From assembly GCF_024502345.1 (NCBI RefSeq), contig NZ_JALDNN010000001.1: a DNA stretch of 64,000 nt, one strand, 5' to 3'. Both the position numbers and the translations under genes were made by a program. Below the pieces are notes generated by a model. That model was not told where the DNA came from, made no database searches, and worked only from the letters and a program-made list of their open reading frames with translations. The DNA comes from Escherichia coli. Lineage in GTDB: Bacteria; Pseudomonadota; Gammaproteobacteria; Enterobacterales; Enterobacteriaceae. The stretch's first letter is position 1. Every line of letters begins with the position of its first letter. Positions 8,834-9,457 of this stretch are shown here, piece after piece.

Positions 8834-9457
8834 TTAATCCAGTTGCGTAATATCAAAAGCGGCGCGGTCGATCACCGCAATGATCTTTTTTATTTGTGCA
8901 TCACTGATATCGCTCTGGTTGACGCGTAAATCCAGCACCGCTTTAAAATTATCCAGCGCCCGCTTCATTTGCGGGTTCTGGCGCAGCGCCGCGCCAACGC
9001 AACGCGCTTTGATGCGTTCTTCAATCATCTCCACCTGTTCGCGGTTTTCTTCCAGCCACTGCGCGCCTTGTTCGGTCAGCGCAATCTGCTTCTTACCACC
9101 TTCCTCTTCGCGGATGGTAATCAGCGACTGCTCCTGCAGAAAATCCAGCGTTGGGTAGATGACGCCCGGGCTTGGGGTGTAATTCCCCTGGGTTAGGTTC
9201 TCAATCGCTTTAATCAATTCGTAACCGTGGCTGTCATCGCGCGAGAGAATATCCAGAATCACCAGACGCAATTCACCGTGACCAAAGAAACGTTGCCGAC
9301 GACCGCCGCCGCGACCGTGGCGACCACCGCAGCATTGACCGTGTTCATGCTGGTGACCGTGTCCGCAGTGCTCGTGTTCTGACTTCTCACCTTTGCAGCA
9401 GCCCTCATGGCGTGGCTGGCCTTCATGTTTACAACACCCTTCGTGATGATGGCTCAT
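8834..9457 (-). CDS. yqjI: PadR-family regulator YqjI with His/Cys-rich N-terminus
   Basis: 207 aa, matches YqjI; N-terminal HHHEGCC-rich tract. Confidence 0.93.
   Translation of the reverse strand: MSHHHEGCCKHEGQPRHEGCCKGEKSEHEHCGHGHQHEHGQCCGGRHGRGGGRRQRFFGHGELRLVILDILSRDDSHGYELIKAIENLTQGNYTPSPGVIYPTLDFLQEQSLITIREEEGGKKQIALTEQGAQWLEENREQVEMIEERIKARCVGAALRQNPQMKRALDNFKAVLDLRVNQSDISDAQIKKIIAVIDRAAFDITQLD

Follow-up and report, generated by a model that had tools for sequence, protein, structure and literature searches.

The His/Cys-rich tail of the PadR-type repressor NfeR (YqjI) in an Escherichia coli strain: a known nickel-responsive regulator with a variable N-terminus

One open reading frame in the window, i.e. 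the whole 64-kb stretch (64,000 nucleotides) of Escherichia coli DNA analyzed here, encodes a protein that carries a long His- and Cys-rich run in front of a DNA-binding domain. Which regulator is this, and what could such a tail do for it? According to the listing of open reading frames of the window, the reading frame comprises 207 amino acids and a stop codon, with an ATG start. The encoded protein is 100% identical over 207 residues to the RefSeq NfeR protein WP_000018003.1 of E. coli BE2-5, and two synonymous nucleotide differences are the only changes that distinguish the gene from its BE2-5 counterpart. The DNA from 8700 to 9800 is matched over at least 80% of its length in 5,421 of 5,426 complete E. 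coli genomes, and the features found there are annotated as nfeR and nfeF. The gene order in BE2-5 is ebgR, ygjH, ygjG, aer, nfeR, nfeF, tRNA-Ile, mug, rpoD. In the window, the neighbour at 7160..8680 is aer, recognized by its PAS, HAMP and MCP signalling domains (Pfam). The gene pair is defined by the following features.

8834..9457, minus strand: nfeR (yqjI) coding sequence (open reading frame; RefSeq identity; annotated in 5,421 complete E. coli genomes).
9463..9468, minus strand: Shine-Dalgarno sequence AGGAGG of nfeR, perfect and 5 nt before the ATG, as read from the sequence.
9745..10509, plus strand: nfeF (yqjH), NADPH-dependent ferric-chelate reductase and regulated target (Pfam FAD_binding_9 and SIP; RefSeq annotation).

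The open reading frame is NfeR/YqjI itself, on the combined evidence of the identical protein sequence, the gene order, the domains and the repeats between the two genes. The preliminary description of this DNA had already named it YqjI, divergent from the ferric reductase gene yqjH, and had filed it as known biology. All three statements are borne out, the first by the identical RefSeq protein and the aer-nfeR-nfeF neighbourhood, the second by the reductase domains and the annotation of the plus-strand gene as nfeF. The third is correct as well: the protein is identical to the reference, and the nfeR gene, its His/Cys-rich tail, its target and the nickel and iron logic have already been published. 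With respect to E. coli NfeR as studied before (Wang, Wu & Outten 2011; Wang et al. 2014; Blahut et al. 2018), the protein, the neighbours, the divergent layout and the intergenic repeats are the same. The strain analyzed here adds an insertion of about 7 kb in ileX, downstream of nfeF.

The length of the tail depends on the correct assignment of the start codon. This ATG is credible because a perfect AGGAGG lies 5 nt upstream and because the frame is kept through orthologue tracts of very different length. A mis-called start can thus be ruled out. GGAG-like motifs are also present at the equivalent position in the orthologous loci of the intergenic alignment. Another open reading frame, at 9259..9426 on the minus strand (55 aa, starting with MKASHAMRAAAKV), overlaps the tail-coding region in an alternative frame, and was rejected as mechanical. 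A few database proteins (P0005, P0062 and P0063) begin in that frame and switch to the NfeR frame further on; these entries most likely reflect frameshifts in the assembly or in the gene call and not a real product.

The N-terminal part of NfeR is built as follows.

9323..9457, minus strand: His/Cys-rich tract, residues 1-45 (composition, low pLDDT, variability among orthologues).
9284..9328, minus strand: Gly/Arg hinge GGRHGRGGGRRQRFF, residues 44-58, joining the tract to the DNA-binding domain (conserved in homologues).

Residues 1-45 read MSHHHEGCCKHEGQPRHEGCCKGEKSEHEHCGHGHQHEHGQCCGG. They contain 11 His and 7 Cys, i.e. 40% of these two residues together, and the 2 His and 1 Cys of residues 57-207 amount to 2%. 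The early claim that roughly the first 50 residues are rich in His and Cys was therefore right, and the string quoted in its support corresponds exactly to residues 1-45. The enrichment is extreme for this DNA. All six frames of the window together yield 159 stretches of 100 aa or longer with no stop codon; the richest 45 residues, those of NfeR, contain 19 His plus Cys, and the runner-up has 11. With a background of 3.4%, the binomial probability of at least 18 such residues in 45 is about 3e-15. The motif HEGCCK occurs twice, from residues 5 and 17, and pairs of adjacent cysteines are located at residues 8-9, 20-21 and 42-43. Tandem Repeats Finder reported no repeat in the E. coli tract DNA.

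Two folded domains follow the hinge.

9050..9259, minus strand: PadR winged helix-turn-helix, residues 67-136 (Pfam PF03551, E 2.5e-15, 56.6 bits).
8843..9043, minus strand: C-terminal three-helix domain, residues 139-205 (AlphaFold helices; Foldseek alignments).

The PF03551 match covers profile positions 1-74 of 75 and, with 56.6 bits versus a cut-off of 27, the assignment to the PadR type made beforehand is well founded. The AlphaFold model, a monomer calculated from a 94-sequence alignment, has pLDDT values below 50 for residues 1-52 and above 90 for most of residues 57-205. It predicts that residues 1-52 are disordered. The winged helix is modelled with helices at 62-73, 78-88 and 97-109 and strands at 113-117 and 123-127, all with pLDDT above 90, and the C-terminal helices at 139-159, 162-179 and 186-205. 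In a Foldseek comparison with the PDB, the top 50 matches listed were mostly PadR/LmrR proteins, with TM-scores up to 0.77 when normalized to the target. Judging from the model, the C-terminal domain is probably the dimerization domain of the two-domain PadR proteins. From N- to C-terminus, NfeR thus consists of a disordered tail rich in metal ligands, the Gly/Arg hinge, the DNA-binding domain of the PadR type and the helical C-terminal domain.

A sequence search of the PDB returned no solved NfeR structure, the best matches being distant PadR proteins at E 6e-9 or weaker. The PadR protein of Bacillus subtilis (5x11) and Rv0047c of Mycobacterium tuberculosis (8jxk) share the winged helix-turn-helix and the C-terminal helical domain with NfeR, at about 18-22% identity. 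Foldseek aligned 152-168 columns to these two structures with a full-length rmsd of 11-18 Å, and the domain orientation is therefore not comparable. Unlike NfeR, these proteins have no His/Cys-rich N-terminal tail, and they respond to phenolic acids or to unknown ligands. Another relative, Rv3488 of M. tuberculosis, is a PadR-family protein (5zhc, 5zi8) whose winged helix is matched to that of NfeR both by sequence (E 0.0014) and by fold. Rv3488 binds cadmium, the metal being held within the folded dimer. In contrast to NfeR it is a single-domain PadR protein of about 113 aa and has no disordered His/Cys tail.

The closest likeness of the tail itself is to be found outside this family. The C-terminus of E. 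coli SlyD and the tails of Hpn and HypB share with the NfeR tail its disorder, a composition of H, C, G, D and E residues, and GCC and HxHxH motifs. A Smith-Waterman comparison of the NfeR tail with the C-terminal tail of SlyD (PDB 2kfw) gave a z value of 3.4, above 999 of 1000 shuffles. BLASTP produced no alignment between the NfeR tract and the SlyD tail, and a PDB sequence search with the 56-residue tract returned no match even at E = 10. On sequence grounds, His-rich nickel-binding tails are a compositional class and not a homologous family. The SlyD-like order of motifs supports a metal-binding role for the NfeR tail; it proves nothing. The tails of SlyD, Hpn and HypB serve hydrogenase or urease maturation, and unlike that of NfeR they have no DNA-binding domain attached.

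The N-terminal region has reportedly been considered as the nickel-binding part before. Blahut and co-workers are said to have placed nickel binding there in 2018, with a plastic coordination, and in vitro binding reportedly tolerated the loss of individual ligands. C42 and C43 were reportedly needed for the response in vivo and not for binding in vitro, and a vicinal disulfide between these two residues is said to have been proposed. Taken together with the sequence evidence, this makes it probable that nickel is bound by the His/Cys tract itself.

The regulation by nickel and iron has been described in the literature, and the comparison with the literature suggested at the outset is in agreement with what was found at this locus. 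NfeR represses nfeF, and excess nickel relieves this repression (PMC7981267, citing Wang 2011 and 2014). In Klebsiella pneumoniae, deletion of nfeR raised nfeF expression 85-fold, and the nfeR mutant had no nickel phenotype in vitro (PMC7981267). Nickel stress induces nfeR (PMC9508795). The YqjH/NfeF protein reduces ferric iron in enterobactin-derived complexes (PMC6460284), and yqjH is part of the Fur regulon (PMC9501238); Fur control of yqjH is named in the title of Wang 2011.

Where could the two regulators act? The nfeR-nfeF intergenic region (9458-9744) is 287 bp long. It was aligned with its counterparts from five other genera and is mostly diverged, with a mean column identity of 65%. 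Three islands are conserved in the six genera: 9478-9502, in which all but two positions are invariant, 9682-9696 and 9706-9718. A palindrome, AGATATATCT, present at each gene start, is among these islands. The candidate regulatory elements are listed below; both promoters were read by hand and are putative.

9477..9503, unstranded: candidate NfeR operator at the nfeR end, consisting of a 16-bp palindrome ATTAGATATATCTAAT (9477-9492) and a third repeat (repeats; conservation).
9705..9724, unstranded: candidate NfeR operator at the nfeF end, TTAGATATATCTGAT, with the palindrome copy at 9708-9722 (repeats; 9706-9718 invariant in six genera).
Minus strand: candidate nfeR promoter, -35 TTGCAG at 9514-9519, 16-nt spacer, -10 TATAAA at 9492-9497.
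Plus strand: candidate nfeF promoter, -35 TTGCAT at 9663-9668, 17-nt spacer, -10 CATTAT at 9686-9691.
9670..9698, unstranded: Fur-box-like element overlapping the candidate nfeF -10 (13/19 to GATAATGATAATCATTATC; 9682-9696 invariant in six genera).
9560..9636, unstranded: REP-type palindromic element with the inverted repeat GCCGGATAAGGCGT/ACGCCGCATCCGGC, outside the regulatory core (inverted repeat; Rfam naRNA4 below threshold).

The 15-mer motif TTAGATATATCTRAT occurs only at 9478 and 9708 in the 64 kb, with a chance expectation of 0.06 matches. The third repeat, of the TATATCT type, is a copy of TATATCTGAT at 9494-9503, 11 bp beyond the palindrome. The candidate nfeR -10 falls inside the nfeR-end palindrome, and the nfeF-end palindrome lies about 15-30 nt downstream of the candidate nfeF -10. 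NfeR probably binds the palindromes at both ends, which would thus be its operators. A scan of 8650-9800 with the sigma-70 consensus found no promoter. The best Fur match, 13 of 19 positions, is found in two overlapping registers (9674-9692 and 9680-9698) and is weak when taken alone, as 19 positions in the window score equally. No match to the Fur consensus was obtained with up to 3 mismatches.

From these elements the following scheme can be proposed. Metal-free NfeR, as a dimer or a higher oligomer, would bind the AGATAT-type repeats at both ends of the intergenic region. One site would cover the likely -10 of nfeR and the other would lie just downstream of the likely nfeF promoter, and both genes would be repressed. 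Rising cytoplasmic Ni(II) would be captured by the tail through its His and Cys side chains. The change would then be relayed through the GGGRRQRFF hinge to the winged helix, the affinity for DNA would fall, and nfeF as well as nfeR would be derepressed. Fur, bound at the Fur box over the nfeF -10, would independently add iron control and shut nfeF down when iron is replete. From the features described above we infer that the tail acts as the sensor, how the hinge contributes, and how promoters and operators are placed relative to each other. We consider it highly probable that NfeR is a two-domain PadR repressor with a disordered His/Cys tail of about 50 residues, that nickel relieves it through tail and hinge, and that Fur control is superimposed.

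The comparison with homologues bears on the part that the hinge may play. A word-indexed search found 1,680 homologues, of which the best 120 were used for hinge and tail. In these 120 sequences the protein is well conserved from RRQRFF onward, and the sequence of the tail is not. The hinge motif, a run of Gly followed by RR(Q/P)RFFGxG(E/D)L, was found in 118 of the best 120 homologues, and in the 94-sequence alignment hardly any variation is seen at R56 and F58. Among 88 distinct full tails, the length measured to the RRQRFF motif ranges from 9 to 90 aa; the shortest have 9 residues to RRQRFF, or 15 aa to the end of FF. Between orthologue tails, the number of Cys varies from 0 to 10 and that of His from 2 to 24. 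Cys-free tails account for 21 of the 88, for example in Leclercia and Lelliottia. At least one CC pair is present in 45 of the 88 distinct tails. Only 4 of the 88, all from Escherichia, have a CC pair no more than 20 residues from the hinge. Since the C42-C43 pair near the hinge is limited to these 4 tails, the detailed allosteric route is suggested not to be general.

Such a loose collection of ligands could also be read in another manner. The tail could chiefly buffer or store metal, like those of SlyD, Hpn and HypB, or be a redox sensor made of vicinal cysteines, and the signal could be another metal (Fe, Co or Zn) or thiol oxidation. The order of motifs resembling that of the SlyD tail fits this idea, and a disordered tract with 0-10 Cys and 2-24 His is what a binding surface of low specificity may look like. 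The vicinal disulfide C42-C43 and the plastic nickel coordination that Blahut and co-workers reportedly proposed point in the same direction, as does the Klebsiella nfeR mutant devoid of a nickel phenotype (PMC7981267). However, relief of repression by nickel (PMC7981267) and induction of nfeR by nickel (PMC9508795) have been reported, and pure storage leaves unexplained why the hinge from tail to DNA-binding domain is invariant in 118 of 120 homologues. We therefore hold a buffer or a redox sensor to be unlikely.

Changes in tail length stem from the gain and loss of repeat units. In Citrobacter sp. R56 (L006 2519-2704), the tail of 96 residues is encoded by a 60-bp tandem repeat in 3.1 copies with 91% matches. 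In a more distant relative from Morganella psychrotolerans, which has no SIP reductase neighbour, forms of 227, 245, 263 and 281 aa (P0248, P0315, P0317 and P0319) fall in one 90% cluster, and these sizes are accounted for by an 18-residue unit, CHGDHHEHGEHHGRGEHG, present 1-4 times. The Citrobacter and Morganella tails expanded independently through tandem repeats. Alleles of different length also exist within Escherichia. E. coli EcN_Sk (L011 58-699) has 7 additional residues, GGRHGRG being duplicated beside the hinge, and the remainder is identical. E. coli EC05 (L012 58-645) lacks 11 residues, EHEHCGHGHQH, and with them Cys31 and five His, the remainder being again identical. The E. marmotae allele has two more residues (HE), with the remainder identical or nearly so. 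Such alleles are rare within Escherichia, and all the observed length changes are in frame. At 99% identity or more, the tract DNA was found in 4,460 E. coli genomes, and 5,422 of 5,426 genomes retain the tract.

Could the tract be functionally neutral, a low-complexity sequence that arose by replication slippage and is tolerated at the end of the protein, with the PadR core alone doing the work? The Citrobacter unit of 60 bp, the 18-aa steps of copy number in Morganella, the insertions and deletions inside E. coli and the orthologue tails with only 9 residues to RRQRFF are all compatible with slippage. Against neutrality, His is enriched in all 88 distinct tails (12-47%, median 25%) despite the turnover of their sequence, every insertion or deletion observed is in frame, and the tract is kept in nearly all E. 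coli genomes. Moreover, distant relatives carry extensions too. When only the core (residues 53-207) was used for an exhaustive search, 4,635 relatives were recovered at E ≤0.001. Among the 138 top matches that start from the beginning of the core, most have a low-complexity N-terminal extension rich in Gly, Arg and His; the extensions of these 138 relatives have a median length of 47 aa and a median His content of 10%. A neutral origin with no role for the tract is thus very improbable. Since most of these 138 relatives have such extensions, a disordered, basic and His-containing tail is old in this branch of the PadR family. The extreme His/Cys tail is a local elaboration in the branch.

If the tail is a sensor, the gain and loss of repeats in frame could have a function of their own. 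Rather than being a fixed site, the metal-binding tail may in this way be a module open to evolution, by which the sensor is tuned; we put this forward as a tentative idea that could well turn out to be wrong. Should it be right, the metal sensitivity or specificity of NfeR would differ between genera and even between strains, and the Cys-dependent allosteric route of E. coli K-12 would be a solution specific to that lineage. In the sequence data, the hinge, the PadR core, the two candidate operators and the Fur-box-like element are the constant parts of the system, and the tail is its plastic part. The natural length alleles of Citrobacter, Morganella, EcN_Sk and EC05 provide material for the question of how the number of ligands relates to the nickel threshold. 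This repeat-driven plasticity, together with the limitation of the hinge-proximal CC pair to Escherichia, is the only angle that is mildly new here. Little is otherwise at stake for this locus, and the check shows that its annotation can be trusted.

How far does the association with the reductase gene extend? The divergent pairing of nfeR and nfeF is kept in five orthologous loci, namely two from Citrobacter and one each from Salmonella, Phytobacter and Leclercia. No SIP reductase neighbour was found beside four relatives at 45% identity or less, and the idea that the function of the wider family is tied to SIP reductases was rejected because these relatives lack that neighbour. One protein with 44% identity (P0128, locus L008 1-5921) has a Gly/Arg/His tail; its gene adjoins a catalase-peroxidase gene and is near heme-utilization genes (ChuX/HutX, radical SAM), with no SIP reductase. 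From this context, iron or oxidative-stress genes may be targets of other proteins in this PadR branch as well.

Elements of the REP type, with the sequence GCCGGATAAGGCG, were observed at three places around nfeR: at 8687-8746 and 8769-8822, in the gap between aer and nfeR, and at 9561-9636 in the nfeR-nfeF intergenic region. Their Rfam naRNA4 scores are 46.7, 29 and 46.5 bits, respectively, for a gathering score of 59.5, and Rfam gave no match above the gathering score in 8600-10600. The intergenic element is absent from the other five genera aligned, including Citrobacter, Salmonella, Phytobacter and Leclercia.

On the other side of nfeF, a decayed integrative element about 7 kb long sits in the tRNA gene ileX, which separates nfeF from mug (window 10552-17628). 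In BE2-5, the tRNA is located 54 bp after nfeF. In the window, the native 3' half of the ileX tRNA remains at 10552-10608. A complete tRNA-CAT at 17553-17628, on the minus strand, is a hybrid with compensatory differences in its T-arm, and the two copies form a 57-nt direct repeat with 82% identity. The element contains the following.

10761-11474: truncated P4-type integrase, with Arm-binding and central domains only.
12663-13106, minus strand: Rep3_C fragment.
13124-14140: IS5.
14411-14863: YfjS/YafY lipoprotein gene.
Inside the element: DUF4942 fragment.
15749-16920, minus strand: IS3.

Among the complete E. coli genomes, none had 80% or more of this element; only its integrase part was matched, with 95.7% identity and at the same chromosomal site. 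Just inside each end of the element (10735-10759 and 17472-17496) lies a perfect direct repeat of 25 bp, TTACCTGACCCATTACCTGACCCAA. It is itself a tandem of TTACCTGACCCA, and these repeats, from their sequence and position, may be arm-type binding sites of the integrase.
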